A stretch of DNA of 18,559 nt from a bacterium (GTDB taxonomy: Bacteria > Zhuqueibacterota > Zhuqueibacteria > Oceanimicrobiales > Oceanimicrobiaceae). A program made the position numbers and the translations under genes. The stretch lies in assembly GCA_046757025.1 (NCBI GenBank), contig JBHHXN010000103.1, positions 1 to 18,559 on the forward strand. The letters run 5' to 3'. Shown here piece by piece: positions 1,222 through 18,559 of the stretch. Each line of letters starts with the position of its first letter. Position 1 is the stretch's first letter. The notes beneath the pieces are model-generated. The model ran no database searches. It saw only the letters and a program-made list of their open reading frames with translations, and was not told where the DNA came from.

Positions 1222-1307
1222 TCATTTAATTGCCGTATCTGTGAATTCAAATATTATTTATCTCAGGCTGTTTATATTCTTAATTTGATGAATTGCATTC
1301 CCTTAGT

Positions 1308-3695: not shown

Positions 3696-5093
3696 ATGCC
3701 AAAAGAAAAAATCCTGATCGCGGACGACGATAAAAACATTCAATTCGCTTTTCGAAAGACCTTTGAAAAAGACGGATTTGAGGTGGTTACGGCGGGCGAC
3801 GGTCGGGAAGCGCTGCAAAAATTAACCGATGAGCAGCCGGTGCTGATTTTCCTGGATATCGCTATGCCCGGCACCTCCGGCCTGGACGCTTTGCAGGAAA
3901 TCAAAGAAAAAGGCATCCGAACGCCGGTGGTCGTGATCACGGGTTTCGGCACCATGCAAACTGCCGTGAAAGCCATCCAGCTCGGAGCGTATGAGTATCT
4001 CACTAAACCGTTAGACGTGGATAAAGTTCGTGTGGTGACGCGCCGAGTGTTGGAAATGCTGCACCTTCGCAAGGAAGTTGAAGAGCTTAAAGCCAAACTC
4101 AGCAAACCGTCGGAGGAATTCGAGCTCATCGGGAATTCTCCACAAATGCACGAAGTCTATAAAACCATCGGTGCGGTGACGACCACACCCAACACCACCA
4201 ATGTTCTGGTAGTGGGGGAAAGCGGCACCGGCAAGGAGCTGGTGGCGCGTGCCGTTCATAACAGCGGGCCTCATGCCTCGGAGCCGTTTGTGGCTATCAA
4301 CTGCACGGTGCTACCCGAGACCTTGCTGGAGAGCGAACTGTTTGGTCATGAGAAAGGCGCTTTCACGGGTGCGGATAAACAAAAGCTTGGGAAATTCGAA
4401 ATCGCCAGACAGGGAACGATTTATCTGGATGAAATTGGCGACATGTCTCCCAAACTGCAGCAGAAGCTGCTGCGGGTTTTGCAGGAACGGGTGTTCGAGC
4501 GATTGGGCGGCAACGAAATCATCCGGGTGAACGCCAGGTTCATCGCGTCTACCAACATGAATCTGGAACGGGAAGTGCAATCGGGTAAATTTAGAGAGGA
4601 TCTGTATTTTCGATTGAACGTCATCAACATCAAGCTGCCTCCTTTGCGAGAACGGTTTGATGACATTCGGCTGCTGGCCCAGCATTTTCTGGTGAAATAT
4701 TGCCGACGTTTGGGTAAAAATGTTCGTGCCATTTCTGAAGATGTCCTGCAGGTTTTGCAATCCTACCCATTTCCGGGCAATGTAAGAGAGCTGGAAAACG
4801 CCATGGAGCACGGGGTGGCGATTGAGAAGGGCGAGGTGTTGCTGCCCGATTCCCTGCCGGAACACTTGCTCAAAACTCAAAAAGAGGTGTATTTAGATAT
4901 TCCCATCACCAATCCGATTTTGCGCCATGCACGGCGGGACGTTTTGGAAGCCTTTGAGAAGAAATTTCTGATTGAACGCTTGCGTGCGCACAAGGGCAAC
5001 GTCACCGCCGCCGCCCGGGAAGCCCAAATTCAACGGCAGAGTTTCCAGCGTTTGATGAAAAAGTACGAAATCGATTCCAGTGAATTTCGGTAA
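3696..5093 (+). CDS. Sigma54-dependent NtrC/AtoC-family response regulator (REC, AAA+, Fis-type HTH)
   Basis: REC (ADDD, LDIAMP, TKP), Walker A GESGTGKE, ESELFGHEKGAFTGA, Walker B LDEIG, FREDLYFRL, FPGNVREL and a C-terminal HTH. The ATG directly abuts the kinase stop codon. Confidence 0.96.
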   Translation: MPKEKILIADDDKNIQFAFRKTFEKDGFEVVTAGDGREALQKLTDEQPVLIFLDIAMPGTSGLDALQEIKEKGIRTPVVVITGFGTMQTAVKAIQLGAYEYLTKPLDVDKVRVVTRRVLEMLHLRKEVEELKAKLSKPSEEFELIGNSPQMHEVYKTIGAVTTTPNTTNVLVVGESGTGKELVARAVHNSGPHASEPFVAINCTVLPETLLESELFGHEKGAFTGADKQKLGKFEIARQGTIYLDEIGDMSPKLQQKLLRVLQERVFERLGGNEIIRVNARFIASTNMNLEREVQSGKFREDLYFRLNVINIKLPPLRERFDDIRLLAQHFLVKYCRRLGKNVRAISEDVLQVLQSYPFPGNVRELENAMEHGVAIEKGEVLLPDSLPEHLLKTQKEVYLDIPITNPILRHARRDVLEAFEKKFLIERLRAHKGNVTAAAREAQIQRQSFQRLMKKYEIDSSEFR

Positions 5094-5279: not shown

Positions 5280-5320
5280 TGCCACCATGCCGGTTTCACA
5301 CTGCCACGCAAAAGGTGACA
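5280..5320. promoter_or_regulatory. Candidate enhancer (UAS): two 19-bp imperfect inverted repeats 22 bp apart
   Basis: TGCCACCATGCCGGTTTCA (5280-5298) and TGCCACGCAAAAGGTGACA (5302-5320), about 100-140 bp upstream of the sigma54-like element. Confidence 0.55.
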
Positions 5321-5417: not shown

Positions 5418-5434
5418 TTGGCATGCCATTTGAA
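5418..5434 (+). promoter_or_regulatory. Sigma54 (-24/-12) promoter candidate for the cytochrome-porin operon
   Basis: TTGGCATGCCATTTGAA against consensus TGGCACG-N4-TTGC. GG(5420-21)-N10-GA(5432-33) gives correct spacing, with A instead of C at -12. It follows an enhancer-binding-protein gene. Confidence 0.65.
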
Positions 5435-5491: not shown

Positions 5492-6760
5492 ATGAAAATG
5501 TCAATTTTGAGGAGTTGCGGTATTTTCTTTTTTGTGGCATTGTTTGTCTTGCTGGCGGTGGTAATGTCAGTGAAAGATGCCCAGGCCATTCCCGCTTGGG
5601 CGCGCAAATACAAAACCAGTTGCTCCACCTGCCATTATGCCTATCCAAAGTTGAATGGCTTTGGTAAGGCATTCAAAAATAATGGCTATCGGTACCCCGG
5701 AGGTGATGAAAACTACCGAAAAGAAGAGCCCACAAGTTTAGGTTCTGAAAGTTACAAAAAAGTCTGGCCGGATGCGATATGGCCTGCCGATATTCCAGGA
5801 GGTTTGCCGATTGCAATTCAAGCGATTGGCCGCGTCAACTACGAGCCGGATGCGGATATTAAATCCACTTTTGAATTCCCTCATGAGTTAGAAGTACTTT
5901 TTGGCGGTACGATTGGTGAGAACGTTTCGTTTTTAGGCGAAGTGGAAATTGAAAACGAGGACAACGAAAACCAATTTGCTTTTCCTTTTCATTTGCAATG
6001 GGATTTCAACCCAAGATGGCACATTAGAGTTGGTAACGTATCCCCGGATCCCACACCAGAGGGTCGCCGACTTACGCGTAACCATTACAACGTGGCCAGT
6101 TTTAGAAGCCGCAACCGGGTGCGTTTGAGAGACGAACATGCTGGTATTGAGCTCTGGGGAGCCGGAAACGGTGCTGGCGGGCGCGGAGGCTATCGTTTCC
6201 AATTAGGTGTTGTCAACGGTCAGGGTAGAAATGATGCCAACAGCGAAAAAGATTTTTACGGCCTTCTTTCCTATAAAATCGGTGGTTTGGGAGTAATCGG
6301 TGGCACCGAAGGACAGGCCAGCGAAACTTCGGACTTTTATGTCGATAACAATTTACGTCTTGGGGGCTATTTCTATATCGGTACGGCCACGAAAGATGCC
6401 GTCGATGAAGATTTTCAAATATTTGGAGGTAACTTCGATTTTTGGTATAATCGATTTATATTGAATGGTACTTTGCTCTATATGAATTCAGAATTGCCGG
6501 GCACTCCGGATCGTCAATCTTTGGTATGGTATGTGGAAAGCAATTATGTCATCTATCCCTGGTTAATCGGTCTGGCGCGATTTGAGTTTACCGATTCAGA
6601 TTTGGATGTCGATACACCGGATCCGGTGACTTCTCTGATACCGGCTGTAACAATCGTCGCAAGGGCAAATGTGCGCTTCACGGCGGAGTACATCATCCCT
6701 TTGGATGACGCAAGTAAAAAGAAAGACCTGTTTGTCATTCAAGCACAGTTTGGATTTTAG
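5492..6760 (+). CDS. cyc2: Cyc2-like fused monoheme cytochrome c / outer-membrane beta-barrel porin
   Basis: GGAGG RBS 5479-83. Sec signal ending AQA, then IPAWARKYKTSCSTCHYAYPKLNGFGKAFKNNGY, matching the Cyc2 N-terminal pattern AxPxFAR[Q/K][T/Y]-x-CxxCH-x3-PxL. The remainder shows alternating amphipathic beta-strands and a C-terminal Phe (QAQFGF). The symbol indicates family resemblance, not demonstrated Fe oxidation. Confidence 0.8.
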   Translation: MKMSILRSCGIFFFVALFVLLAVVMSVKDAQAIPAWARKYKTSCSTCHYAYPKLNGFGKAFKNNGYRYPGGDENYRKEEPTSLGSESYKKVWPDAIWPADIPGGLPIAIQAIGRVNYEPDADIKSTFEFPHELEVLFGGTIGENVSFLGEVEIENEDNENQFAFPFHLQWDFNPRWHIRVGNVSPDPTPEGRRLTRNHYNVASFRSRNRVRLRDEHAGIELWGAGNGAGGRGGYRFQLGVVNGQGRNDANSEKDFYGLLSYKIGGLGVIGGTEGQASETSDFYVDNNLRLGGYFYIGTATKDAVDEDFQIFGGNFDFWYNRFILNGTLLYMNSELPGTPDRQSLVWYVESNYVIYPWLIGLARFEFTDSDLDVDTPDPVTSLIPAVTIVARANVRFTAEYIIPLDDASKKKDLFVIQAQFGF

Positions 6761-6766
6761 TGATAA

Positions 6767-6855
6767 AAAAGGCTGACCTTCTTCTGGGGGTGTACAAATT
6801 TATTGTACGCTGCTGACTTAGTGAAACGACAAATCCAGCAGAAGGTTAGCTTTTT
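6767..6855 (+). other. Structured intercistronic RNA element (21-bp outer stem plus inner hairpin, ending in U5)
   Basis: 6767-6787 pairs with 6835-6855 with one mismatch and two G-U pairs. Inner hairpin GTGTACAA-ATTTA-TTGTACGC at 6790-6810. Confidence 0.6.
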
Positions 6856-6904
6856 CAAATTGACTCTATTTATTAATCGACACATTAAATCAGGAGAAAA
6901 TCCT

Positions 6905-7507
6905 ATGCGAAGATTTGGGTTATTTACAGCCACGCTCGTGGTCACTTTGGTATTCTGTGCCACGAACAATAGCCTGGCCGGCACCATCAAAGGTAAGGTG
7001 ACGGTAAAAGGAGCTCGGGATGCCCGCGATGTGGTGGTCTTTGTCGATGAAATGAAAGGCGAATTTAAACCGCCGAAAAAGCACGTACAAATGGATCAGA
7101 AGAATTTAACTTTTATTCCACATGTGCTGCCGATCATTCAGGGTACCACCGTGGATTACATGAATAGCGACGATGTGCTTCACAACGTGTTTACCCCCGA
7201 TAAGTGTGCAGAAAAATTCAACCTCGGTACCTGGCCCAAAGGGGAGGTGCGGTCCTTCACTTTTAAAGAAAAAGGTTGTTCTTCCGTCATGCTGTGCAAG
7301 GTGCACCCGGAAATGGAAGCCTGGATTCTCGTCCTGCAAAATCCCTATTTTTTCAAGACCGATAAAGATGGCACGTTTACCATCGAAAACGTACCGGCGG
7401 GAAAATATACTTTGCGTGTTTGGCACCAAAAGCTGAAGGGCAAACCGCAGGAAATCGAGGTGCTGAAAGAAGGTGTGGTGACGGTTAATTTTCAAATGAA
7501 ACGATAA
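6905..7507 (+). CDS. Periplasmic type-1 (blue) copper cupredoxin with a carboxypeptidase-regulatory-like beta-sandwich
   Basis: AGGAG RBS before ATG 6905. Signal peptide ending SLA. Ligand set H(NVF)...C-x2-H-x2-M (CKVHPEM). C-terminal TDKDGTFTIENVPAGKYTLRVWH. Confidence 0.8.
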   Translation: MRRFGLFTATLVVTLVFCATNNSLAGTIKGKVTVKGARDARDVVVFVDEMKGEFKPPKKHVQMDQKNLTFIPHVLPIIQGTTVDYMNSDDVLHNVFTPDKCAEKFNLGTWPKGEVRSFTFKEKGCSSVMLCKVHPEMEAWILVLQNPYFFKTDKDGTFTIENVPAGKYTLRVWHQKLKGKPQEIEVLKEGVVTVNFQMKR

Positions 7508-7707
7508 GATTTCTCAAGGCTTGTGATTCACATATTTAGCAGATTACAATCGGGATCTCATATTAAAGTCTTTGGTTGCCGGTTTCACGAAACCCAGACA
7601 TTGAAATAAATTCCTTTACTGAAAGTGTAAAATTCTTTACAGAGCGTTTTTACACATCCTTAGACAGGATAAATGATAAGGAATGTACCACCAGCAAAGA
7701 GGCACTT

Positions 7708-8193
7708 ATGAGAAAAACCATGATAGATTTATTACAGCAAGCGAGAGTATTTGAGGATCTCAATACGCAAGAAATCGCAGAAGTTGCCAAAATTAGCCAT
7801 AAAGTCACTTTTAAAAATGGTGAGCGTATTTTGGAGGCTGAAACGCCAGCCAGATATCTGTTTATAGTCGGCGAGGGTTTGGTGGAACTACGCTTCAAGG
7901 TTACCTTACTTGGCGGTACCGTAGAAATTACTATTGACCAAAAGTTCAACGGCACTTCCTTTGGCTGGTCCGCGCTAACTGAACCATATAGATACACTCT
8001 CTCTGCTTTAGCGATGCGCGATACCGAGCTGATTAGAATAAAAGCAAATGACATCAAGAGATTGTGTGAGCAGAATAATCATTTGGGATTTGTGGTTATG
8101 AAGAACATTGCCCTGATAATTGGTGAGCGATTTGGTACGATACAAAATGCATTGATTGCTGAGATACAACAAAACCTCAAAATAAAAGAATGA
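7708..8193 (+). CDS. Stand-alone cyclic-nucleotide-binding (Crp-like effector) domain protein, no HTH
   Basis: GAGG RBS before ATG 7708. VFEDL...FKNGERIL...LFIVGEGLVEL...FGWSAL...YTLSALA. At 161 aa it ends after the C-helix. Confidence 0.85.
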   Translation: MRKTMIDLLQQARVFEDLNTQEIAEVAKISHKVTFKNGERILEAETPARYLFIVGEGLVELRFKVTLLGGTVEITIDQKFNGTSFGWSALTEPYRYTLSALAMRDTELIRIKANDIKRLCEQNNHLGFVVMKNIALIIGERFGTIQNALIAEIQQNLKIKE

Positions 8194-8704
8194 TAGTTTG
8201 AACCTAAATTGATGAACTATTTAACCACGTAGTGTTTTCGTTTGATCACGTGCTCTTTGCTTGATTGAATTACGACACGGACATCAATTGAAGGGTGAAC
8301 AAGTTTAACGAAGAGAAGACTTTGTGGTCTAAATGAAAATAAACTGCTACGACCATACAGACACTTTTGGGATACAGTACATTTTTTTAAACAGGTGAGA
8401 AGATCCTGGCGTAGATTGTTGCTGAAGTTTTCAAACTCAGTTTCACCCCATAGGCAACAATTTCTTTGTTGCTCGTAAGTCGTAACAGATGTTGACTCCA
8501 GATGGTGTGAATCTTCTGTTCTCGACCCCAGTTTGAGAGTGTAATCTGTTGGGCGAGAAAATTAATGTGACTATAGTTAAAGTCAACCACAAATTTCTTC
8601 TTAAAAAATGTCCCATCCTGAAATAGGTTGACAAAATTAGTAGTGGTTTTTCTTTTGGTGCCCGATTAACAAAGATTTGACTGACAATAGAAGGGAATAG
8701 ACGT

Positions 8705-9250
8705 ATGCGTTCAAAACTAATATCAATGGCGCTCCCGATTCTAACCACGATAATTGGAAGTATAATAGGTGGGGTTGTGGGATGGTCCTCCCCTGAGCCT
8801 ACTCAACAAGATATCTTTATCAAAGCACGTCAATATGCCTTTGAGCCCTCTGTTATCCGAGTAAATAGGGGGGACACACTCCATATAAAGCTTGTTTCAT
8901 TGGATGTGGTGCACGGATTTTTTGTTGAAGGATATGATATTGATGCTGAGATTTTTGCTCATCAAAAGACTTTTCATATTCGACATCCATCAAATAGTGA
9001 TACATGGTCAGAGGTAGATGAGTTAGTCCTTATTGCAGATCGTCGTGGAAAGTTTCGTTATCGCTGTTCCCATACCTGCGGTAGTATGCACCCATTTATG
9101 CAGGGGGAACTTATTGTTCAACCCAACACGCCTTATCATGCTGGCGTTGGTGCTGTCTTCGGGCTTTTTATAGGGATGTTGTGGCTATTTGCCCGACGTG
9201 GAAGAGTTCCCTTAACTTACAAGAATTCTGAAGAGAAGCCGCGTCAATGA
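8705..9250 (+). CDS. Membrane-anchored CuA-type cupredoxin (cytochrome c oxidase subunit II / NosZ C-terminal-like domain)
   Basis: N- and C-terminal hydrophobic segments. ARQYAFEP, SLDVVHGF and CSHTCGSMHPFM (H...C-x3-C-x3-H-x2-M). Confidence 0.85.
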   Translation: MRSKLISMALPILTTIIGSIIGGVVGWSSPEPTQQDIFIKARQYAFEPSVIRVNRGDTLHIKLVSLDVVHGFFVEGYDIDAEIFAHQKTFHIRHPSNSDTWSEVDELVLIADRRGKFRYRCSHTCGSMHPFMQGELIVQPNTPYHAGVGAVFGLFIGMLWLFARRGRVPLTYKNSEEKPRQ

Positions 9251-9259
9251 CGCGTTTTT
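9240..9259 (+). terminator. Possible weak intrinsic terminator overlapping the stop codon
   Basis: CGCGTC-AAT-GACGCG followed by TTTTT. Confidence 0.35.
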
Positions 9260-9366
9260 GGTTAAAGAAAGTAGTGGCTTGTTTAAGTTCTTTTAAAAAA
9301 TTGGTAGTAGTTATGCAGCAAAATTGGAGATCTTGAACGAGGCTGAGATAAGAGGAGTGTAGAATA

Positions 9367-10857
9367 ATGAGCAAGTTTGTGAATTCAGTACCAGAGACTG
9401 AGAAGAGAGTTGATAGCAGTGAAACAGTTTTAGCTGATCGGAAAGTATCCCCGGCCCAGGGTTTCCGTCTTGACCTTTTCGAGTGGATTCCAGGTCTCAA
9501 GAGGTTTGCTCGTTTGCGATCATTTCAATTTCTGATGATGTTACCAAATCTTCTCGTTTTCCATTTACTTTTTATTGCGGGAATTTTTGGTACTCCTGTA
9601 GGCAATAAGAATATCATTATAGTATTTATTTGGATCCTCTGGTGGTTTATGTTGATTGCCATTATGGTACCTTTTGCCTCCAGAATTTGGTGTACAATGT
9701 GTCCTATGCCATTCTTTGGAGATTGGCTTCAACGTTTGGCGTTGATTACAGTCAGGCCTGGGAAAACCCGTGGGATAAGAAATAAACTATTCGGCCTCAA
9801 TCTACGTTGGCCAAGAAGATTTTCTAACATTTGGCTCCAAAATATAGCTTTTCTTACTCTTTGCACATTCAGTGCCCACCTTGTGACACGTCCAATTGTT
9901 ACCGTTGGAGTTTTAGGAGGGCTTGTGTTGTTGGCGACAGTTCTGGCCCTTTTTTATCGGATGAGAACATTCTGTAATTATATTTGCCCGGTGAGTGGGT
10001 TTCTCAGCCTGTATTCAATGGCATCTACGATTGAACTTCGCTCAAAAGATACCGATGTTTGTTTGAAATGCGGTACGAAGGGCTGCCGAACCGGGAGTGA
10101 AAACGGCTGGGCATGTCCCTGGCTGGTTTATTTGGGAAAGCTGGATCGTAACAACTATTGCGGCCTTTGTATGGAGTGTATAAAGTCGTGCCCCAATGAT
10201 AACATTGCTTTGAATCTCAGGCCATTTGCTACCGACACAAAAATCAAAGGTTTTGATGAAGCCTGGAAGGGTTTTATTATGTTAGCTCTGGCGATGGCCT
10301 ATTCCGTAATTCTCTTGGGAACAAATGGCACGATTAAAGACTGGGCCAATGTGGCAGAATCAGGGATGTGGGGTGGTTTCGTTCTTTATGCCCTTATCTT
10401 ATGGTCTGTTGCACTGGTGTTAGTTCCGGGAATTTTCTATGGATGCAGTTGGTTGGCACGCCGGTTTGCTAATATAGCTCATATCCCTGTTAAAGAGGTT
10501 TTTTTGGGCTATTCCTTTGTTCTGGTACCCTTAGGACTATTAGCGTGGATCGCTTTTAGTGTTCCCTTACTTTTTGTGAATGGTTCTTATATTATTTCGG
10601 TCATATCCGATCCGCTGGGCTGGGGGTGGAACTTGTTCGGAACCGCCCATTTCCCCTGGCAACCGTTGTGGCCAGAGTATCTTGGTTTTATACAAATTGG
10701 TCTTCTATTATTGGGACTATTCTACGCTTTGTATCGGGGTTACCAAATTGGAGAAAGCCTATTTAACTCTTCCCCGGCGGCCTTCAAAGGTCTTATTCCC
10801 ATAGCTGCTTTCTCTGTAGCAGTAACATTAGCATTTCTTCGCTTTTTTACAGGTTAG
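9367..10857 (+). CDS. Polytopic 4Fe-4S membrane protein, NapH/MauN/NosR-like
   Basis: GAGGAG RBS. About 9-10 TM segments. Motifs WCTMCP, FCNYICP, CLKC-x4-C...ACP and CGLCMECIKSCP. Confidence 0.85.
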   Translation: MSKFVNSVPETEKRVDSSETVLADRKVSPAQGFRLDLFEWIPGLKRFARLRSFQFLMMLPNLLVFHLLFIAGIFGTPVGNKNIIIVFIWILWWFMLIAIMVPFASRIWCTMCPMPFFGDWLQRLALITVRPGKTRGIRNKLFGLNLRWPRRFSNIWLQNIAFLTLCTFSAHLVTRPIVTVGVLGGLVLLATVLALFYRMRTFCNYICPVSGFLSLYSMASTIELRSKDTDVCLKCGTKGCRTGSENGWACPWLVYLGKLDRNNYCGLCMECIKSCPNDNIALNLRPFATDTKIKGFDEAWKGFIMLALAMAYSVILLGTNGTIKDWANVAESGMWGGFVLYALILWSVALVLVPGIFYGCSWLARRFANIAHIPVKEVFLGYSFVLVPLGLLAWIAFSVPLLFVNGSYIISVISDPLGWGWNLFGTAHFPWQPLWPEYLGFIQIGLLLLGLFYALYRGYQIGESLFNSSPAAFKGLIPIAAFSVAVTLAFLRFFTG

Positions 10858-10899
10858 GTAGTAACGCAGGTAAGTTGAGAAAACAATTATGAGGCAATT

Positions 10900-11109
10900 A
10901 TGAATAACATATTTAAAACTATTTATTGTGATGAATGCAAAAAAGATATTCCAATAGAGGAACTTGAGGATGGAACCATCATTGTCCATTGTCCTCGGTG
11001 TGTGGGTGAATGTATGCTATGTGATTGTCATTTGGTGAAAGAATGTTTCCCGGATACTCCAGGCGTGAAAGTTCAACATCCTGATGACGGGAGGGGAGAG
11101 GTGTTATGA
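10900..11109 (+). CDS. Small Cys-rich putative metal-binding protein (69 aa)
   Basis: GAGG RBS and an ATGA overlap with the next gene. Eight Cys: CDEC...HCPRC-x3-C-x2-CDCH-x4-C. No signal peptide. Confidence 0.75.
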   Translation: MNNIFKTIYCDECKKDIPIEELEDGTIIVHCPRCVGECMLCDCHLVKECFPDTPGVKVQHPDDGRGEVL

Positions 11110-12059
11110 AAAAAAGATTAGGGGAACTTCTGGCTACTGTTGTAACGATTGTTCTGTTGATAGGTCTGCCTGTGGTAATCTTTCAAAATGCTCCCTGGGT
11201 CGCAAAAGGGGCTACTCGCGTTATCCATCTTACAGGCGTGATGAAAAATGGAGCCTGGACCGATGAGGAAGTAAGCGGCTTAAACTATTGGTGGAAGACC
11301 TTTTATCCTACTACTCTTATTTTACGAGAAGGTGAAGAGGTTTTACTACGGCTATCCAGTTCAGATGGAACGCATAGTTTTTATGTGCCAGAATTAAACC
11401 TGGGGCCCATTCAAGTAGAATCTGGCCATACAGTTGAAGTGCCATTACGTGCCACACGCGCTGGCAATTACACCTACTACTGCACACTGGTTTGTGGCGA
11501 ATGTCATTATTTTATGCGTGGAACCGTGAGGGTCTTAGATGAAGATGAAAAATATGCATCCTCTGTGGATTTGGAAAAAGCTCATCTGAGCTGTGAGATT
11601 CATGATCCCCCCTCCAAATTTATTTCTTTTATTGAGCGAGGTAAATATTTATATCAACAAAAAGGCTGTGTAACATGTCACGGAGAGGATGGGGTTGGGG
11701 GGATCTACAATCCAAATTACGTAAGCACGTATATCCCCGGATTAAATAACCTTGCGGATAAAATGAAAATATATTGGCAAGAGGATGCAGAGATTATCAT
11801 CAACCTTCTGGAATCTAATCCGGATTTGGAAAGTCTGGAAGACGACCCCCCTATTGATAGTTACAGCCGATTTCTCGCTCAATACAACTCCATTTGTAAT
11901 AAAATTATTAATGGCAGTCCAACACTACAGAAGTTGAATCCTGATGGACCCAAACCCCCGCTTTATATGCCTGCATGGGAGGAACAACTTTCAAGAGAGG
12001 ATATTAATGCAATCTTGGCTTACCTAATAAGCTTGTATCCCTGGGATGAATATGAGTGA
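11106..12059 (+). CDS. Membrane-anchored CuA domain fused to a monoheme cytochrome c
   Basis: One N-terminal TM. SSDGTHSFYVP...YYCTLVCGECHYFM (CuA). GKYLYQQKGCVTCHG...MPAW (class I cytochrome c, His/Met). Confidence 0.85.
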   Translation: MKKRLGELLATVVTIVLLIGLPVVIFQNAPWVAKGATRVIHLTGVMKNGAWTDEEVSGLNYWWKTFYPTTLILREGEEVLLRLSSSDGTHSFYVPELNLGPIQVESGHTVEVPLRATRAGNYTYYCTLVCGECHYFMRGTVRVLDEDEKYASSVDLEKAHLSCEIHDPPSKFISFIERGKYLYQQKGCVTCHGEDGVGGIYNPNYVSTYIPGLNNLADKMKIYWQEDAEIIINLLESNPDLESLEDDPPIDSYSRFLAQYNSICNKIINGSPTLQKLNPDGPKPPLYMPAWEEQLSREDINAILAYLISLYPWDEYE

Positions 12060-13947
12060 ACCGGCTATGTCAGAGTACACGAAGACGACACAAAAAGTTA
12101 ATGCAGAATGGTTGAAGAAAAATTTTCCCTGTTACTGGGCTTGTCCAGTACACACTGAGGCCGGCCGTTATGTGAATCTCATTGCTCAGGGGCGGTTTGA
12201 AGAAGCCTATCGAATTGCACGTGCTCCAAATCCTTTTGCGTCCATTTGCGGACGAATATGTGCGGCCCCCTGCGAAACGGCTTGCCGCCGTGGTCAACTG
12301 GACAAACCTATTGCTATTCGGGCGTTAAAGCGATTTGTTTGCGAGCGATATGGTGTGGAAAGTATGATCGATATCAGCAGAATTCACGAGGCATTAGGAC
12401 CCAGGATTAAACCTAAAAACAAATGGGTGGCTGTCATTGGTTCCGGTCCGGCGGGTATGTCTTGTGCCCATGACCTGGCTCTTTTAGGATATAATGTTAC
12501 GGTTTTTGAAAAACAGGAGGTGCCAGGCGGTATGCTGACATTGGGTGTCCCCGAATATCGACTTCCAAGAGAATTAGTTCGCATGGAGATCAATGCTATT
12601 CTCAGTTTGGGAGTGGAACTTAAGTTGGGTAAGGCCTTAGGTAGAGATTTTACTTTGAAAGACCTTAAGGAAAGCGGCTTTGAGGCGATATTCCTGGCCA
12701 TTGGTGCCCATAAAAGCCGGGATCTTCGCATCGAAGGGGTGGAATTAGATGGGGTTTTACGAGGTGTAGATTTTCTCTTGAATGTCAATATGGGCTACAA
12801 GGTTGAATTGGGAGAGAAGATTATTGTTGTTGGAGGAGGTAATGTGGCGATCGATGTAGCCCGTACCGCGGCACGACAGGAACGAATCGAGGAAGTGGCT
12901 TCAGATATTACGGAAGCATTAGATGTGGCGCGATCCGCTGTGCGCTTCGGCGCTAAAGAAGTTCATATGGTGGTTTTAGAATCTCGGAGGGAAATGCCGG
13001 CCACCGTAGAAGAGATTCAGGAAGCCTTAGAAGAGCGTATTCATATTCATAATTCTGTGGGTCCAAATCGAATATTAGGGGAAAATGGCGTGGTTGTGGG
13101 TTTAGAAACCATTGATTGTGTTTCGGTTTTTGACGAGAATGGAAAGTTTAATCCAAAATTTGCACATGAAACGGAAAAAGTGATAGAGGCTGATACGATT
13201 ATCATGTCCATTGGTCAGGCCTCAGATCTCTCCTTCATCCAGCCAGAAGATGGTATTGAGGTGACGCCACGCAATACCATTAAAGTGGATACAGATACGT
13301 TAGCTACAACTGCTCCGGGCATTTATGCTGGTGGAGATGTGTGCTTTGGGCCTCGTGTGGCGATTGATGCCATCGCCGATGGACGACGGGTGGCCCGTGC
13401 CATTGATGAATATCTCACAGGTCGAAAACACGAAGTTAAAAAGGTTTATCTCACCGTTTACGATACATATGAATATGAACAACAGCCAGAATTTGAGAAA
13501 GTCAATCGAATTAATATTCCAGCTCTGCCAATCGACCGTCGTGTAGGTGTGGCACAAGTTGAATTGGGTTATACTGAAGAACAGGCCGTACTGGAAGCCA
13601 AACGCTGTCTTCGCTGCTGGATCAACACGGTTTTCGTAGGACGTGAGGAATCGGGTTCCGAATGTATTCTTTGTGGCGGTTGTGTTGATATTTGCCCTGA
13701 AAGTTGTATTGAATTGGTTTTCCTCGATCAACTCATTGGCGATCCCAAAGCCATGAAAACTTTGGAGCAATCAGAAGATTTTATCCTGGGTCGGCGACAA
13801 ACCATTCTTGACGAAGAAATCGAGGGCGCAGTGATGATTAAAGATGAAACTATTTGTATCCGCTGCGGACTTTGTGCAAAACGTTGTCCCGTGGACTGTA
13901 TAAAAATGGAAGGTTTTGAAATTGAGGAGAGAGTTGCATATGAATGA
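12052..13947 (+). CDS. GltD/NfnB-like FAD-dependent NAD(P) oxidoreductase with N-terminal Fe-S domain and C-terminal 2x[4Fe-4S] ferredoxin
   Basis: CYWACP, CGRICAAPCETACRR, GSGPAG, GVPEYRLP, GGGNVAID, AGGD, EAKRCLRC, CILCGGCVDICP, CIRCGLCAKRCP. No signal peptide. Start is ambiguous (12046, 12052 or 12067). Confidence 0.9.
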   Translation: MSEPAMSEYTKTTQKVNAEWLKKNFPCYWACPVHTEAGRYVNLIAQGRFEEAYRIARAPNPFASICGRICAAPCETACRRGQLDKPIAIRALKRFVCERYGVESMIDISRIHEALGPRIKPKNKWVAVIGSGPAGMSCAHDLALLGYNVTVFEKQEVPGGMLTLGVPEYRLPRELVRMEINAILSLGVELKLGKALGRDFTLKDLKESGFEAIFLAIGAHKSRDLRIEGVELDGVLRGVDFLLNVNMGYKVELGEKIIVVGGGNVAIDVARTAARQERIEEVASDITEALDVARSAVRFGAKEVHMVVLESRREMPATVEEIQEALEERIHIHNSVGPNRILGENGVVVGLETIDCVSVFDENGKFNPKFAHETEKVIEADTIIMSIGQASDLSFIQPEDGIEVTPRNTIKVDTDTLATTAPGIYAGGDVCFGPRVAIDAIADGRRVARAIDEYLTGRKHEVKKVYLTVYDTYEYEQQPEFEKVNRINIPALPIDRRVGVAQVELGYTEEQAVLEAKRCLRCWINTVFVGREESGSECILCGGCVDICPESCIELVFLDQLIGDPKAMKTLEQSEDFILGRRQTILDEEIEGAVMIKDETICIRCGLCAKRCPVDCIKMEGFEIEERVAYE

Positions 13948-14434
13948 AAAGAAAAAAACAAAGAAAAAGGATAATCAAAATTTGGTCAGTCGGCGGGATT
14001 TTTTGAATACCCTGGGAACAGGAGCTTTGGTGGTCAGCAGTTTGGGCGCGGCTGCCGTCACCTGGGATTTTTTGTCTCCCAATGTTCTGTTCGAACCGCC
14101 ATTAAAATTTCCGGTGGGAAAACCCGAAGATTACCCGCCCGGCACCGTGACCCTGAATTCGGAAAAGAAAATATTCGTGGTGAGGGACCAGCAGGGATTT
14201 TTCTATTGTCTTTCTGCCGTCTGTACCCACCTGGGCTGTCTGGCCTTCTGGAAAGGCGATGAAAATCTGATTGCCTGCCCATGCCACGGAAGCCGCTTCG
14301 GAATGCATGGTGAAGTCATCAAACAGCCGGCGCCCAGGACCTTGCCGCATTTTCTGATCGCGCTCGACAATCGCGGGAAATTAGTGGTGGATAAAAATGA
14401 GCTCGTCAGTGAAGATTACATTTTGAAGGTGTGA
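13940..14434 (+). CDS. petC: Rieske [2Fe-2S] subunit of a Rieske/cytochrome b complex
   Basis: GAGGAG RBS. Tat motif SRRDFL plus TM. CTHLGC, CPCHGS, PAPRTL. Overlaps the oxidoreductase stop by 8 nt. Confidence 0.95.
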
Positions 14435-14439
14435 TAATT

Positions 14440-15186
14440 ATGCAAAACCCTCTTTTGACAAAGATCGTGCGCTCGCAGGCGTGGAAGTCGATTTTCAGAA
14501 CCGGCGTTCCGAAGACGAATCTGGATAAATCTCTGCTGATTTTTAACAATTTGTTTTTGCACATTTTCCCGGTCAAGGTGCGACAAGAATCCCTTAAATT
14601 CCGGGCCACCTTTTATCTGGGTGTGACGGCTTTTGCGTTGTTTGTGATTCTGGTGGTCACCGGCATTTATCTCATGCTCTACTACCATCCTTCGGTACCA
14701 CAAGCTTATCGGGACATGAAAGATTTGGAGTTCGTGGTTTCCAACGGTCGCTTTATCCGAAATTTTCACCGCTGGGCTGCGCACGGTATGGTAGCCGTGG
14801 TGTTTATGCATTTGCTGCGAGTCTTTTTTGCCGGCGCCTACAAGCCGCCTAAACAATTCAACTGGGTGCTTGGCGTCATTTTGTTTTTAATCACTTTGCT
14901 GCTCAGTTACACGGGATACCTTTTGCCCTGGGACCAATTGGCTCTTTGGGGAATTTCAGTGGGCACCAACATGATGGGTTATGCGCCAGTGCTCGGGAAA
15001 AAACTGCGCTTTCTTTTGCTCGGCGGCAACCTGGTTGGGGAAAACGCCTTGCTGCGCTTTTACGTGCTGCATGTTTTTGTTTTACCTTTAGCCATGACCG
15101 TTTTAATTGGCATTCATTTCTGGCGTGTTCGCAAGGACGGCGGCATAACTCCGCTTTTCAAACGAATCAAGAAGAAGTCAGAGTAA
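14440..15186 (+). CDS. petB: Cytochrome b6-type (split cytochrome b, N-terminal four TMs)
   Basis: RNFHRWAAH...[27 protein letters not shown]-x14-H. Start is ATG 14440 or GTG 14431. Confidence 0.95.
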
Positions 15187-15222
15187 TGAGTTGAACAACA
15201 TTTTTATTTAGAGGTCTTGGTC

Positions 15223-15927
15223 ATGAGCTTAAATCAAAAATTCAAATTAGAAGAAATTGTTGAACCACTGGAAATCCCTAAACGCGTAGCCTTCATAAAA
15301 CGCGACACCAGTGCCCAGGTCAAAGTGGAAACCGAAGAGACGGTGATGAGCTGCCCGGATTTGTTGCTGCGCCTGGTGGTGGGATTGGAGATTCTCCTCA
15401 TCATTCTGGCTGTGCTCTCTCTGGTAATCGATGCCCCGCTGGAAGAAATGGCCAATCCAGAGCACACACCAAATCCAGCCAAAGCGCCCTGGTATTTTCT
15501 CGGTCTGCAGGAGCTGCTGCATCTTTTCCCGCCTTTTGTTGCGGGGGTTCTGCTACCCCTGCTGGTCGTGGTTGCACTGGTAGTGATTCCGTATTTTGAG
15601 ATCAACATTAAACGTGAAGGGATGTGGAAAAGCAATCAGCGACAGACCTTTTTCCGGCTAACCACCTTCACCGCGATAATCGTGATCACATTTTCTCTGT
15701 TAAAGGCTTATTCAATTTCGATACCCACTTTGTTGATTTATGGTTACATGATTTTGCCTTATCTGAGTAAAAAAGAATCGGGTTTCATCGAACGACTGGC
15801 GGGCTATTCATTGGCTGAGTGGGTGATGACCTGGTTCGTTTTGGTGGCAGGTGTTTTGACGCTCATCGGCATTCTATTTCGTGGACCCGGCTGGGAATGG
15901 ACCTGGCCCTGGCAAGGAATATATTAA
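15223..15927 (+). CDS. petD: Cytochrome b6 subunit IV-like (C-terminal half of cytochrome b), APWY variant
   Basis: APLEEMANPEHTPNPAKAPWYFLGLQELL, multiple TMs, FRGPGW. GAGG RBS before ATG 15223. Confidence 0.88.
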   Translation: MSLNQKFKLEEIVEPLEIPKRVAFIKRDTSAQVKVETEETVMSCPDLLLRLVVGLEILLIILAVLSLVIDAPLEEMANPEHTPNPAKAPWYFLGLQELLHLFPPFVAGVLLPLLVVVALVVIPYFEINIKREGMWKSNQRQTFFRLTTFTAIIVITFSLLKAYSISIPTLLIYGYMILPYLSKKESGFIERLAGYSLAEWVMTWFVLVAGVLTLIGILFRGPGWEWTWPWQGIY

Positions 15928-15929
15928 CA

Positions 15930-17888
15930 ATGGAAACGAGACATTTGAACAAGATTTATGCCATCGCCAGCTTGCTCTTTTTGGCGGTGCTGGCCATCTC
16001 TCCCACCAAGGATTATTTCACTGAGTGGCGTAGCTATCAGAAAAAATATAATGAATTGCTTTCCAGACAACCACGCAGAATCAAACCGGTGGAAATAAAT
16101 ATCAAACAAATCTGGAACATAGAGTTGGACCGGGTGGATCGCTGCACATCTTGCCACCTGGGAATGGAGGAAATTGGTTTGACTGGGGCTGAACAACCAT
16201 TTACCAGACACCCTCAGATTTATCATGATTTGAATGAAATGGGTTGCACGATTTGTCATCAAGGTCAGGGTCTGGCCACTTCTGCGGAAAAGGCGCACGA
16301 CGGCCGACCCTACTGGGAAGAGCCGCTTCTGCCAAAAACTTACCTGGAAGCTTCCTGTGGCCGTTGCCATCTCGAAGAAACCGTTAAGGATGCCCCCACC
16401 TTGAGCTACGGTCGACGGCTTATTCGAGAGTATAATTGCGCCGCTTGTCATGAAATCGGTAACTTGAAAAAGGGATACGCTCCGCAATTGGACGGCATCG
16501 GCGATAAAACCAACCGCGGCTGGCTGGTGCGCTGGTTGCGGGATCCCAAGGCCTTCCGACCCGAAACCAAAATGCCGGACTTCAAGCTCGGTGAAAAAGA
16601 AGCGGAGTGGCTGGCTGATTTTCTGATGACGTTTAAATCGTATCCTGACAATCAAACGCTCGAACCGTTACCGCTTGAATTGCAGGAAGAATACCCTCCG
16701 GAAGAATTGGTGGAATTGGGAAAGACGCGTTTTAGAGAGGCGCGCTGTATCAGTTGTCACCTGGTGGATGGCAAAGGCGGTCCCCTGGCACCCGATCTCG
16801 TAAAGGTCGCCAGCAAGGCCAAACCGGCCTGGCTGTACTCTTACATACTGCATCCCCACAGCTTCCAGCCCGATGTGGAAATGCCACAATATGGTTTCAC
16901 TCCTAAAGAGGCACAGGCCGTCACCGCTTACATGATGAGTGAATTTGTGGATTGGGATGCACCCGAAGACACCGTAGAACATACTCCGGAGCGCGGTTTC
17001 TATGAAAAAGGATTGCAGCTATTCGACAAATATAATTGCGGCGGGTGCCATGAGCTGAGCGGAGTGAAAAGAGTGGAAAATCTCGGTCCGGCGCTCACGG
17101 ACATCGGCGACCGACCACTCTATCAGTTAGAGTTTGGCAGCTCTGATTTACCCAGAACACTGCCGTCCTACATCTACCACAAGCTTAAAAATCCACGTCA
17201 GTTTCTCCAGAGCGCGCGCATGCCCATCTACGGTTTTGAAGAGGAAGAACTGCGAGCCATCACCACCGCGCTCCTGGCTATGACCCGAAGCGAGCTACCG
17301 CAAAAATACCTCGTTGCTGCTCAACCCGAACCCGCCTTCGAACCTCAGGGGGATTTTGGCCGGTTGGTAAAAAAATACGCCTGTTTTTCCTGTCACGTCA
17401 TCCAGGAGCGGGGGTTTCTTCTGGCTACCGACCTGACCAGAGAAGGCAGTCAGGTGCAAAAAAAGTGGTTGCCAAATTATTTCAAGATACCCTACTCCAT
17501 GCGACCCATTTTAACCGAACGCATGCCCAATCTTTTCATGTCAGACGCGGAAATTCAAACTGTGGTCGATTATTTCAACCTGGTGCTGCGCGACGATACG
17601 ATTGAATCGATACAGATTGCGGTAAATGACACTGCGCTCATTTCCGAAGGGGAGAATCTTTTTTTCGAGAAATACGGATGTCAGGCCTGTCACCAGGTTG
17701 GCGGCAAAGGCGGTTATGTGGGTCCACCTCTGGATCACACCGGTGAACGGATGACGCCGGGCTGGGTCTATCGCTGGCTCATGAATCCGCAGAAGTACTA
17801 TCCGGATACCATCGAGCCCAGGGCCGGTTTGACGGATCCGCAAGCCCGAGCCATCACGGCTTACCTGATGAATTTGAAAGGAGAGTAG
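15930..17888 (+). CDS. Membrane-anchored octaheme cytochrome c subunit of the Rieske/cytb complex
   Basis: N-terminal TM. Eight CxxCH motifs: CTSCH, CTICH, CGRCH, CAACH, CISCH, CGGCH, CFSCH, CQACH. AAGGA RBS before ATG 15930. Confidence 0.93.
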   Translation: METRHLNKIYAIASLLFLAVLAISPTKDYFTEWRSYQKKYNELLSRQPRRIKPVEINIKQIWNIELDRVDRCTSCHLGMEEIGLTGAEQPFTRHPQIYHDLNEMGCTICHQGQGLATSAEKAHDGRPYWEEPLLPKTYLEASCGRCHLEETVKDAPTLSYGRRLIREYNCAACHEIGNLKKGYAPQLDGIGDKTNRGWLVRWLRDPKAFRPETKMPDFKLGEKEAEWLADFLMTFKSYPDNQTLEPLPLELQEEYPPEELVELGKTRFREARCISCHLVDGKGGPLAPDLVKVASKAKPAWLYSYILHPHSFQPDVEMPQYGFTPKEAQAVTAYMMSEFVDWDAPEDTVEHTPERGFYEKGLQLFDKYNCGGCHELSGVKRVENLGPALTDIGDRPLYQLEFGSSDLPRTLPSYIYHKLKNPRQFLQSARMPIYGFEEEELRAITTALLAMTRSELPQKYLVAAQPEPAFEPQGDFGRLVKKYACFSCHVIQERGFLLATDLTREGSQVQKKWLPNYFKIPYSMRPILTERMPNLFMSDAEIQTVVDYFNLVLRDDTIESIQIAVNDTALISEGENLFFEKYGCQACHQVGGKGGYVGPPLDHTGERMTPGWVYRWLMNPQKYYPDTIEPRAGLTDPQARAITAYLMNLKGE

Positions 17889-17893
17889 AGGGC

Positions 17894-18370
17894 ATGTGTA
17901 AAATTGTTTCCGCCTTTGTTATGGCGCTGTGGATGATTACTTTCTCTTGCCAGCAGAAAAACAGCTCGGAACACGATTCGAGTCCTGCAGCGGATTCATT
18001 AGTCACACGCACGATGAATCCGCCACCTCAGTCTGAAATGACGAGTGCTTTGCAGCTCAATTACGCTGAACAAAATGGCAAACTGCTCTACGAAAAGTAT
18101 TGTTCGATTTGTCACGGCCTACAGGGTCAGGGCGACGGATTCAATGCGTACAATTTAGATCCCCGACCAAAAGATCTCACTGCAAGCGGCTATTTGGATT
18201 CCGTGAGCGACGCCTGGTTGATGGAAGCAATCGGCCAGGGGGGGCGCGGCGTCAAACGCTCCGTTCTGATGCCAGCCTACGAAAACACCCTCACCAAACA
18301 TCAAATCGAAAATGTTGTTGGTTACTTGCGTTATCTTTCACGTAGAGGATCAAATATTCCTCAAAAGTGA
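17894..18370 (+). CDS. Monoheme class I cytochrome c lipoprotein
   Basis: GGAG RBS. Lipobox-like ITFS-C. GKLLYEKYCSICHG...GDG...PRPKDL...MPAY. Confidence 0.88.
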   Translation: MCKIVSAFVMALWMITFSCQQKNSSEHDSSPAADSLVTRTMNPPPQSEMTSALQLNYAEQNGKLLYEKYCSICHGLQGQGDGFNAYNLDPRPKDLTASGYLDSVSDAWLMEAIGQGGRGVKRSVLMPAYENTLTKHQIENVVGYLRYLSRRGSNIPQK

Positions 18371-18504
18371 ATTTCAATCCACAACCGATTTGTGTCTATT
18401 TAATCATCCTTAATAATTCATGAAAGCCCTGCCGAATCCCCTTTCTATTTGCCAGCGGGTATAAAATTTGAGCTTGAATTTGGTTTCGAAAATGGGAGAT
18501 TGAC

Positions 18505-18559
18505 TGTCAGGGGGCACTTAAACTGTACCACCTGCGGGCAGATCAAAGTGTACCACCTT
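18505..18559 (+). mobile_element. Probable IS21-family terminal repeat (element truncated by the window end)
   Basis: Begins TGTCA, then tandem imperfect repeats GGGCACTTAAACTGTACCACCT (18512-18533) and GGGCAGATCAAAGTGTACCACCT (18536-18558). A TG terminus with multiple internal ~20-bp repeats is typical of IS21 ends. No transposase is visible. Confidence 0.65.

Follow-up and report, generated by a model that had tools for sequence, protein, structure and literature searches.

In which direction do electrons run through an outer-membrane cytochrome-porin of a Cyc2-like type that is followed by quinol-linked modules? The question is raised by contig JBHHXN010000103.1 of the assembly GCA_046757025.1 (the host, a bacterium of the Zhuqueibacterota), which was analysed over its entire length of 18,559 nucleotides (the window) and in which 13 open reading frames (ORFs), all on the plus strand, span positions 5492-18370. 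They encode the porin, a type-1 copper protein (T1Cu, here also the cupredoxin), a module A consisting of a flavoprotein, a Rieske protein, cytochrome b6-like and subunit IV-like proteins and an octahaem cytochrome, and a module B in which CuA domains accompany a NapH-like membrane protein. An earlier note, made from the letters alone, had joined all of these into one pathway for either uptake or export of electrons. Here we describe the locus as a conserved composite of the porin with its cupredoxin and two separately occurring inner-membrane modules. We give a probability of roughly 45% to a reading in which menaquinol or NAD(P)H, oxidised by both modules, supplies electrons to the copper carriers and the porin, the porin reduces an acceptor outside the cell, and part of the electrons is bifurcated to NAD+.

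Conservation of the locus

Matches to a profile of the porin were obtained in 22 of 167 genomes of the host phylum (26 places) and in 11 of 301 sampled Fidelibacterota genomes (14 places), and the downstream genes were surveyed at all 40 places; the genomes are related and the counts are not independent. Module A follows the porin and cupredoxin at 15 places in two phyla. At 14 of these a Rieske gene comes after the flavoprotein gene, and at the remaining one the contig ends within the flavoprotein. Module B is found with the porin at nine places, and at four (G000, which is the host, G001, G167 and G168) both modules stand in the order of the window; 11 of the 15 module A places lack module B. 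An ACIII/Qrc-like complex occupies the slot at three places, one of which also has module A. Three contigs end at the porin, and the other places hold paralogues with a cupredoxin and regulators only (the porin-T1Cu pairs of G000:C63, G013 and G004, for instance, come with just a kinase and a regulator), remote homologues or fragments. A flavoprotein of 32% identity near a remote porin (G138) was left out of the counts. Both modules occur in other orders on two metagenome contigs (L065 and L079), and a sample of 301 genomes from the class of locus L035 brought up no genome besides the one holding L035 itself. A gene for haem-copper oxidase subunit I was not found downstream of the porin at any of the 40 places in BLAST searches with a caa3 subunit, by which cbb3 types could be missed.

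In a tree that omits three later loci and one partial protein, a single clade of 14 rows (FastTree support 97) holds the porin-linked flavoproteins, and 13 of the 14 are seen with a porin. This clade stands apart from the sister proteins that go with NapA-like, Aio-family or Qrc-like enzymes. The porins of the slot are drawn from at least two porin clades in a quick tree, and in three genomes (G014, G015 and G022) the flavoprotein is 81-87% identical to that of the window while the porin is only 34-36% identical. It appears from the co-occurrence in two phyla, the single flavoprotein clade and a conserved sigma-54-type site upstream of the porin (see below) that the parts belong together, as had been proposed, and that their linkage is selected. 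Among the findings that would refute its proposal the earlier note had named that the modules never co-occur in other genomes, and the survey shows that they do co-occur. Its single linear pathway is not supported by the survey: because each module occurs with the porin without the other, and both together at so few places, modules A and B look like parallel, exchangeable feeders.

The porin

The porin has no Pfam or NCBIfam family match, and 446 homologues were found. A hydrophobic segment at residues 9-27 (signal peptide) is combined with a single N-terminal CxxCH, and the AlphaFold2 model (pLDDT 89.8) shows a 16-strand barrel behind an N-terminal haem domain, with the strands counted by eye and one of them traced across a bulge. 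The best Foldseek matches of this model are the general porins OmpU/OmpF, and a sequence search against solved structures found nothing. By the Cyc2 motif criteria of PMC8406198 (this and the other papers with PMC numbers were available as excerpts, to which our statements refer), the protein carries the AXPXFAR[QK][TY] motif before the haem site, with Trp replacing Phe, and PXL after it. The relaxed motif is present in 102 of 104 aligned homologues and the exact FA form in 38. Signal peptide, haem motif, flanking motifs and predicted barrel together suggest a protein of the Cyc2 type, and since this placement was made without reference Cyc2 sequences we use the term Cyc2-like. Caution is called for in transferring a function: section 13 of PMC8406198 holds the function of distant Cyc2 homologues to be uncertain and warns against extending it. 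All Cyc2 proteins characterised so far oxidise Fe(II), and their measured potentials range from -130 to +560 mV (PMC13692758). Prediction of a complex between porin and cupredoxin gave a score of 0.02 against a mark of 0.32, which speaks neither for nor against their contact.

A second monohaem family of about 370 aa with one N-terminal CxxCH was seen at G000:C63 10550-11665, C141 13321-13640 and L029:4113-5246. These proteins are unannotated, adjoin multi-cupredoxin proteins and, to judge from their sequence, could be another cytochrome-porin.

The flavoprotein-coupled Rieske/b complex (module A)

The Rieske protein, b6, subunit IV, multihaem cytochrome c and NAD(P) flavoprotein are all encoded in one cluster. 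The flavoprotein has no signal or membrane segment, and its second Rossmann strand ends in an acidic residue, which we take to favour NAD over NADP. In the Rieske protein the Ser is kept and the Tyr is absent. Flavoprotein-linked b subunits share His44 and the C-terminal Arg/Lys of the b6-like subunit, whereas three unlinked ones lack these residues; their equivalence to the anammox residues is one of position only. The haem cN Cys is absent from the window b6 and from every flavoprotein-linked b subunit except the C12 paralogue, which has one Cys nearby, and because of this lack we file the window complex as a relative that works alike and not as a strict member of the anammox type. The subunit IV-like protein has four segments above the hydropathy threshold, compared with the five helices of the anammox-type criterion.

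Two further flavoprotein-Rieske/b clusters of the host, one with a NapA-like enzyme (C170) and one with a Qrc/Psr-like enzyme (C12), lead us to regard module A as a chassis for different periplasmic ends. In the first arrangement (G000:C170 (L054), C178 (L062), the intact L049, and L047/L155) the genes for flavoprotein, Rieske protein, fused b/IV and octahaem cytochrome are followed by a NapA/Fdh-like molybdoenzyme of 906 aa, below all cut-offs, and then by NapG, NapH and a second long NapH-like gene; it is kept in at least three genomes of the family. In the second (G000:C12 36000-53000; L055) flavoprotein, Rieske protein, b subunit and a pentahaem cytochrome precede a Qrc/Psr-like complex and several multihaem cytochromes, and the locus also holds a paralogue of the window's cNMP-domain protein (50%). 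Sister complexes with a pentahaem cytochrome adjoin an Aio-family enzyme and a T1Cu in L146, L147 and L149 (G014, G005 and G013) and an Nxr/Nar-type enzyme in L148 (G003).

The CuA/NapH-like module (module B)

Both CuA domains have the His and the C-x3-C-x3-H-x2-M loop on a cupredoxin fold, so that the two CuA sites named in the earlier note stand as predicted copper sites. In other loci a CuA domain is fused to the NapH-like protein, and the full-length form of the CuA-monohaem fusion occurs in 3 of the 167 genomes of the host phylum. The Cys pattern of the 69-aa protein is kept in 23 homologues among the matches listed.

The NapH-like protein has 496 aa and about eight hydrophobic segments (model pLDDT 89.6). 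Its cysteines, with CxxCP as the first motif and CxxxCP as the second, are invariant in 79 of 79 aligned sequences, and the same alignment has no invariant His and no conserved membrane His for a haem b. A sequence search of the alignment against solved structures found nothing, and the model had no Foldseek match at E 0.001 and elsewhere only generic helical matches (best Z 8.2), an absence that is weak evidence. A NapG partner gene is not present in the window. The family is large, with 1767 proteins at E 1e-50 or better.

We collected 93 module-B loci without dereplication, 14 from genomes and 79 from metagenomes, where the 80 best among at least 545 matches were taken up. A CuA domain adjoins the NapH-like gene in 86 of the 93, and no oxidase subunit I was found near module B in any of them. 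Among the 37 loci with at least 3 kb of upstream sequence, 15 have a porin, 24 a cupredoxin and four a flavoprotein. When the porin is missing, module B adjoins Sec-NosZ (L072 and L086, over cut-off; L128, by BLAST), NapA (L133, over cut-off), Aio/Idr-family enzymes with two MauG-like genes (L091 and L098) or Nxr/Nar-type enzymes (L036, L039 and L041). The raw NosZ count was inflated by CuA-domain matches, and full-length NosZ is present in three loci only. In L036, L039, L040 and L041, which belong to Planctomycetota and an Undinarchaeales archaeon, module B lies beside periplasmic Nxr/Nar-type operons, and there either the haem b subunit or the NapH-like protein carries CuA as a fusion.

Among the longer NapH-like homologues, 21 of 26 carry a GltD-type flavoprotein inserted in the Fe-S loop, and P0139 adds a CuA domain. 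These insertion proteins (P0121-P0141; L038:2-2188) are about 940 aa long; one is labelled Omnitrophota and one lies in a Brocadiaceae contig. What we assume to be NADPH-type and NADH-type Rossmann ends both occur in them.

The direction of electron flow

In the outward route that we favour, both modules would load periplasmic copper and haem carriers, in parallel and not in series, and the porin haem would hand the electrons to an external oxidant, at a guess something soluble and of high potential, for instance chelated Fe(III), Mn(III) or a shuttle. Menaquinol would be oxidised at the Qo site of module A, one electron passing from the Rieske protein through the octahaem and the cytochrome c towards the porin, and the other from the b haems along the Fe-S chain to NAD+, as proposed for the anammox Kustd1480-85 complex. 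Module B would take electrons from menaquinol or a cytoplasmic NAD(P)H flavoprotein to the two CuA centres, as its fusions and neighbours suggest. The analysis shows the gene content, the motifs, the predicted folds, the co-occurrence, the fusions and the conserved promoter-like site; we infer co-transcription, partners, potentials, direction and acceptor alike.

Export is favoured because module A requires a high-potential sink when it runs forward, module B points outward, and the porin is the only conserved terminal part. With typical potentials the transfer from NAD(P)H to CuA is downhill in the outward direction only. We also count in favour of export the enzymes beside which module B sits when the porin is missing, the b-subunit residues His44 and Arg/Lys that go with the flavoprotein, the uptake-type and group 3b hydrogenases of the host, and the result that neither RuBisCO nor acetyl-CoA synthase was found in this 94.8% complete genome. 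The combination of a high-potential Rieske protein (Ser) with menaquinone has been read as fit for NAD(P)+ reduction (PMC12954380), and module A of the window combines the Rieske Ser with a menaquinone host (MenB, over cut-off). From the same paper we infer that the Rieske/haem-c and haem-b/flavoprotein branches of a Qo site either both take electrons from quinol or both give them, and because the branches are parallel, a serial path for electrons from the porin via the Rieske protein to NAD+ should not be open. As to the two directions left open in the earlier note, export thus fits better, while its direct reverse flow through the Rieske complex to NAD(P)+ fits Q-cycle chemistry poorly and fails as an uptake wire. 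A further claim, that a Cyc2-family porin acts as terminal reductase and as the high-potential sink for Rieske/b bifurcation of menaquinol to NAD+, and that the copper pool it draws on is also filled from NAD(P)H or quinol by a haem-free CuA/Fe-S membrane protein of unsolved fold, we put forward tentatively, as something that may well turn out otherwise. If it is true, many Cyc2 genes counted as iron-oxidation markers would mark outward electron transfer.

A number of observations weigh against an outward route. The Cyc2 precedent speaks for uptake, and if the porin haem is of low potential, as the Cyc2 range allows, the step from copper to porin would be uphill. The sister complexes adjoin enzymes of uncertain or oxidative direction (Aio-family, Nxr-type), and in L180 cytochrome bd genes adjoin the porin on the opposite strand. 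The NapH-like protein lies far below the cut-offs of the NCBIfam NapH families (26.6 bits versus 213 and 26.3 versus 234). The GltD domains of the insertion proteins belong to a different clade than the window flavoprotein, and for this reason the fusions tell us what the module is capable of and not that the two proteins of the window are in contact. Two haem-copper oxidases, NapA and an Nxr/Nar enzyme are encoded elsewhere in the host and could be sinks in trans. Finally, citryl-CoA lyase (over cut-off) beside a CoA-ligase pair could belong to an autotrophic pathway of the host.

Many of these points suit an inward route, in which the porin would oxidise Fe(II) or another outside donor and load a copper pool draining to oxidases or nitrate reductases elsewhere, module A being driven backwards by the proton-motive force or making NAD(P)H from the quinol of other donors such as H2. 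To the behaviour of all tested Cyc2 proteins, the sinks of the host and its citrate-cleaving genes can be added that Cyc2 with a blue copper protein is the rus-operon pattern, and that an Aio-family enzyme, T1Cu and sister complex share the layout, with a possible donor enzyme at the head. This route is a strong rival, though in our judgement less likely than export. Oxidase subunit I was found neither downstream of the porin at the 40 places nor near module B in the 93 loci; module A in reverse would, as we reason, consume NADH and not produce it; and electrons at the level of copper would need an energy input to reach menaquinone via module B, for which the sequence, with no conserved membrane His for haem b, suggests nothing. 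The straight wire of the earlier note, from an outside donor through porin, copper, Rieske complex and flavoprotein to NAD(P)+, has all its parts present and, at the four places, conserved together, but it strikes us as very improbable: besides the parallel Qo branches and the frequent absence of module B where module A is present, each electron would have to be lifted by about 0.6 V (typical potentials) against the membrane potential on its own.

Two further explanations do without a common respiratory path. The porin could let in or reduce one particular metal ion or oxyanion, to take it up or to detoxify it, as has been suggested for Geobacter ExtI, with the NapH-like protein as a CcoG- or FtrD-like metal reductase servicing the copper sites. 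Geobacter extHIJKLMNOPQS, which joins a porin to Rieske and cytochrome b proteins, has an effect on the reduction of selenite and tellurite (PMC5877670). ExtP and ExtQ are the best-scoring families for the window b6 and IV, though below cut-off, and the slot porins vary far more than the flavoproteins in three genomes, as substrate-specific parts might. Rubrerythrin-like genes in 21 of the 93 module-B loci, a YtkA-like gene in several, and FtsX and FtrD-like genes in L104 point the same way. An octahaem cytochrome with a whole Rieske/b or ACIII-like complex would be a large investment for uptake, Pfam and NCBIfam find no metal permease in the window, and ExtI is described, in the excerpt of PMC5877670, as a porin that has no haem domain, in a cluster with neither copper proteins nor a flavoprotein; we regard this explanation as improbable. 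Equally little can be said for a loose assembly, a distant prospect to our minds, in which the porin-cupredoxin pair and the two membrane modules merely stand under one regulator and serve different partners in trans without a shared path. Each block is found without the others, the paralogous porin-T1Cu pairs have only a kinase and regulator, and in the window there is a hairpin at 9240-9254 besides the gaps of 200 and 511 bp. Against it stand the one flavoprotein clade, seen almost throughout with a porin, a slot filled from at least two porin clades, and a layout that survives rearrangement (L065, L079); the gaps, moreover, are short in homologues, and hairpin counts are at chance. Having weighed these alternatives we retain the outward route.

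Gene inventory, layout and regulation

The features of the window are listed in Table 1. The gene inventory of the earlier note was confirmed, including its one type-1 copper site and its 11 c-type haem motifs. CxxCH strings total 12 (porin 1, CuA-cytochrome 2, octahaem cytochrome 8, last cytochrome 1), and the haem motif total is 11 because the string inside the second CuA ligand loop was set aside as a haem site, given that 45 of 66 homologous second-CuA proteins that have the motif lack the extra Cys of this string. Likewise, Pfam and NCBIfam find no oxidase or reductase catalytic subunit in the window, as had been noted. The window is the entire contig, which stops 189 bp past the last gene and leaves the next gene downstream out of view; in homologous loci that extend further no conserved terminal enzyme was found past the last gene.

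Table 1 Features of the window and the basis of their assignment.
Feature	Position	Strand	Basis
Sensor kinase, dCache-HAMP-PAS-HisKA	1293..3695	+	Pfam
Sigma-54-dependent response regulator, NtrC/AtoC type	3696..5093	+	Pfam/NCBIfam; conserved upstream of porin
Three TG(C/T)CAC / GTG(A/G)CA half-sites, candidate activator binding region	5280..5320	+	3 found vs 0.26 expected
Candidate sigma-54 -24/-12 promoter, non-canonical -12	5419..5434	+	Cross-genome alignment
Cyc2-like monohaem cytochrome-porin, 16-strand barrel	5492..6760	+	Motifs, model, fold match
Periplasmic type-1 copper protein with carboxypeptidase-regulatory-like beta-sandwich	6905..7507	+	Pfam; His/Cys/His/Met ligands invariant in 29/29 aligned homologues
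Stand-alone cNMP-binding-domain protein, accessory	7708..8193	+	Pfam
Membrane-anchored CuA domain (module B)	8705..9250	+	Pfam/NCBIfam, loop motif
NapH-like multi-helix membrane protein (module B)	9367..10857	+	CxxCP, CxxxCP, two 4Fe-4S motifs
69-aa Cys-rich protein accompanying module B	10900..11109	+	No family match
Membrane-anchored CuA domain fused to monohaem cytochrome c (module B)	11106..12059	+	Pfam/NCBIfam, motifs
Cytoplasmic GltD/NfnB-type FAD/Fe-S NAD(P) oxidoreductase, C-terminal 2x4Fe-4S (module A)	12046..13947	+	Pfam/NCBIfam
Tat-type Rieske protein with potential-raising Ser (module A)	13940..14434	+	Pfam; Ser criterion PMC12954380
Four-helix cytochrome b6-like subunit (module A)	14431..15186	+	Four canonical His, extra His44
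Subunit IV-like protein, APWY at Qo motif (module A)	15223..15927	+	Pfam/NCBIfam
Membrane-anchored octahaem cytochrome c (module A)	15930..17888	+	Pfam, haem motifs
Monohaem cytochrome c, probable lipoprotein	17894..18370	+	Pfam, motif; conserved after octahaem gene

The last eight of the 13 genes overlap or are at most 42 bp apart, and the first five are split by gaps of 144, 200, 511 and 116 bp. In homologues the gap from T1Cu to CuA measures a few to about 210 bp; because the same interval is short there, the 511-bp gap is a local feature, and the short homologous gap favours a single transcript. A weak tblastn match in the 511-bp gap was considered as a decayed CuA-cytochrome remnant and rejected, since an 18-homologue profile scored it below shuffled controls. 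About 50 bp within this gap (8607-8656) recur at 82-83% on host contigs C17 and C32. Where the CuA gene ends (9240-9254), a perfect 6-bp hairpin and a T run make up a possible terminator or processing site; scans of the window for hairpins or terminators and for sigma-70 promoters gave counts at chance level. The stretch at 18504-18557 resembles (84% over 55 bp) one adjoining transposase-like genes on C94, and the contig end is probably an insertion-sequence end that broke the assembly. The position of the cNMP-domain gene varies in homologous loci, where it comes after the last cytochrome or beside the porin.

Ahead of the 13 genes lie, in order, hypE and genes for a His-rich membrane protein, the sensor kinase and the sigma-54 regulator. 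A linkage to hydrogenase maturation as a sign of an H2 donor was seen in only one other examined genome (G003) and was therefore not used. Homologues of the kinase, 33-65% identical, sit upstream of the porin in most cassette loci, and the kinase likely regulates the cluster. The sigma-54-type site can be aligned in 13 of the 17 regions upstream of porin genes, where chance would give it in 0.6-1.8% per region, and the half-sites are present in 3 to 5 copies in 9 of the 17, about 100-140 bp above it; both patterns were set post hoc, after inspection of the alignment, and the genomes are related. The signal came only from the cross-genome alignment, the canonical sigma-54 pattern with two mismatches being at chance level over the whole window (40 vs 38).

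The host genome

The host genome (5.96 Mb, 94.8% complete) encodes uptake-type and group 3b hydrogenases; at G000:C158 2191-3624 the large subunit of a group 1 NiFe hydrogenase has an in-frame TGA near its end, possibly for selenocysteine. RuBisCO and acetyl-CoA synthase were not found at this completeness, and tblastn found no NosZ or Aio. The citryl-CoA lyase and the CoA-ligase pair with a citrate-binding domain (G000:C39 16574-19809; L198) lie among PrpD-like and isomerase genes and could serve either a reverse TCA cycle or a catabolic route. On contigs C52, C186, C94 and C151 there are 36 ORFs with at least three CxxCH, up to 31 per protein and several beside barrel-like genes, which are likely other extracellular electron routes of the host.

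Comparison with known systems

The closest likeness of module A is to the Kuenenia stuttgartiensis complexes Kustd1480-1485 and Kuste4569-4574, which by description also unite a Rieske protein, a four-helix b6, subunit IV, an octahaem cytochrome and an NAD(P) flavoprotein in a menaquinone host (PMC12954380). The window Rieske protein has the Ser without the Tyr, like Kustd1480 with its potential of +335 mV, and the N-terminal His and C-terminal Arg/Lys of the window b6 are positioned as proposed for an extra haem b in anammox b6 (PMC12954380). The window differs in having neither the haem cN Cys nor an HAO-like subunit and in its link to an outer-membrane porin and copper proteins, and the host is not an anammox bacterium. 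In the excerpt of PMC12954380 quinol-driven NAD(P)+ reduction is only proposed for the anammox complexes, and no acceptor is proposed for the high-potential branch of Kustd1480-85. By analogy module A would carry out the same reaction. The cluster offers a candidate partner for this unexplained high-potential branch outside anammox bacteria.

With Cyc2 porins and the Acidithiobacillus rus operon the window shares the signal peptide, the one N-terminal CxxCH, the PXFAR-type and PXL motifs, the 16-strand barrel and the blue copper neighbour (PMC8406198, PMC10654088, PMC13692758). In contrast to the rus operon it has no oxidase genes, its cupredoxin is not rusticyanin, and quinol-linked modules follow instead. 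Cyc2 serves as a marker of Fe(II) oxidation, and a conserved distant group tied to quinol-linked modules and not to oxidases offers a direct way to test this marker. NapGH and NosGH are quinol dehydrogenase modules (NCBIfam NF007013, TIGR02163), often beside periplasmic reductases, and the NapH-like protein resembles them in the CxxCP/CxxxCP and two 4Fe-4S motifs of a membrane protein. It differs in size and number of hydrophobic segments, in scoring 26 bits against cut-offs above 200, in having CuA domains and not NapG as family partners and in the possible GltD insertion. Module B belongs to a large family for which no solved relative was found. Geobacter extHIJKLMNOPQS (Cbc6) likewise gathers a porin, a Rieske protein, a split cytochrome b and multihaem cytochromes in one cluster, with the difference that its porin has no fused haem domain and that, as described in the excerpt, it has rhodanese-like and 5-, 10- and 12-haem proteins and no copper proteins or flavoprotein (PMC5877670). 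The window b6 and IV stay below the cut-offs of the ExtP and ExtQ HMMs (263 vs 290 and 56 vs 150), and the octahaem cytochrome passes that of ExtS (113 vs 100) through its repeated haem domains.

In the literature searched, which was mostly without subscription papers, supplements, the original anammox proposal and surveys of multiple Rieske/b complexes, neither a link of Cyc2 to a flavoprotein Rieske/b complex nor one to a CuA/NapH-like module turned up. Each part has known kin, in Cyc2, the anammox complexes, NapH and the Geobacter ext cluster. What the window adds is that a single porin is followed by the two modules together, that different porins can fill its slot, that a promoter-like site is shared among the loci, and that insertion fusions occur.

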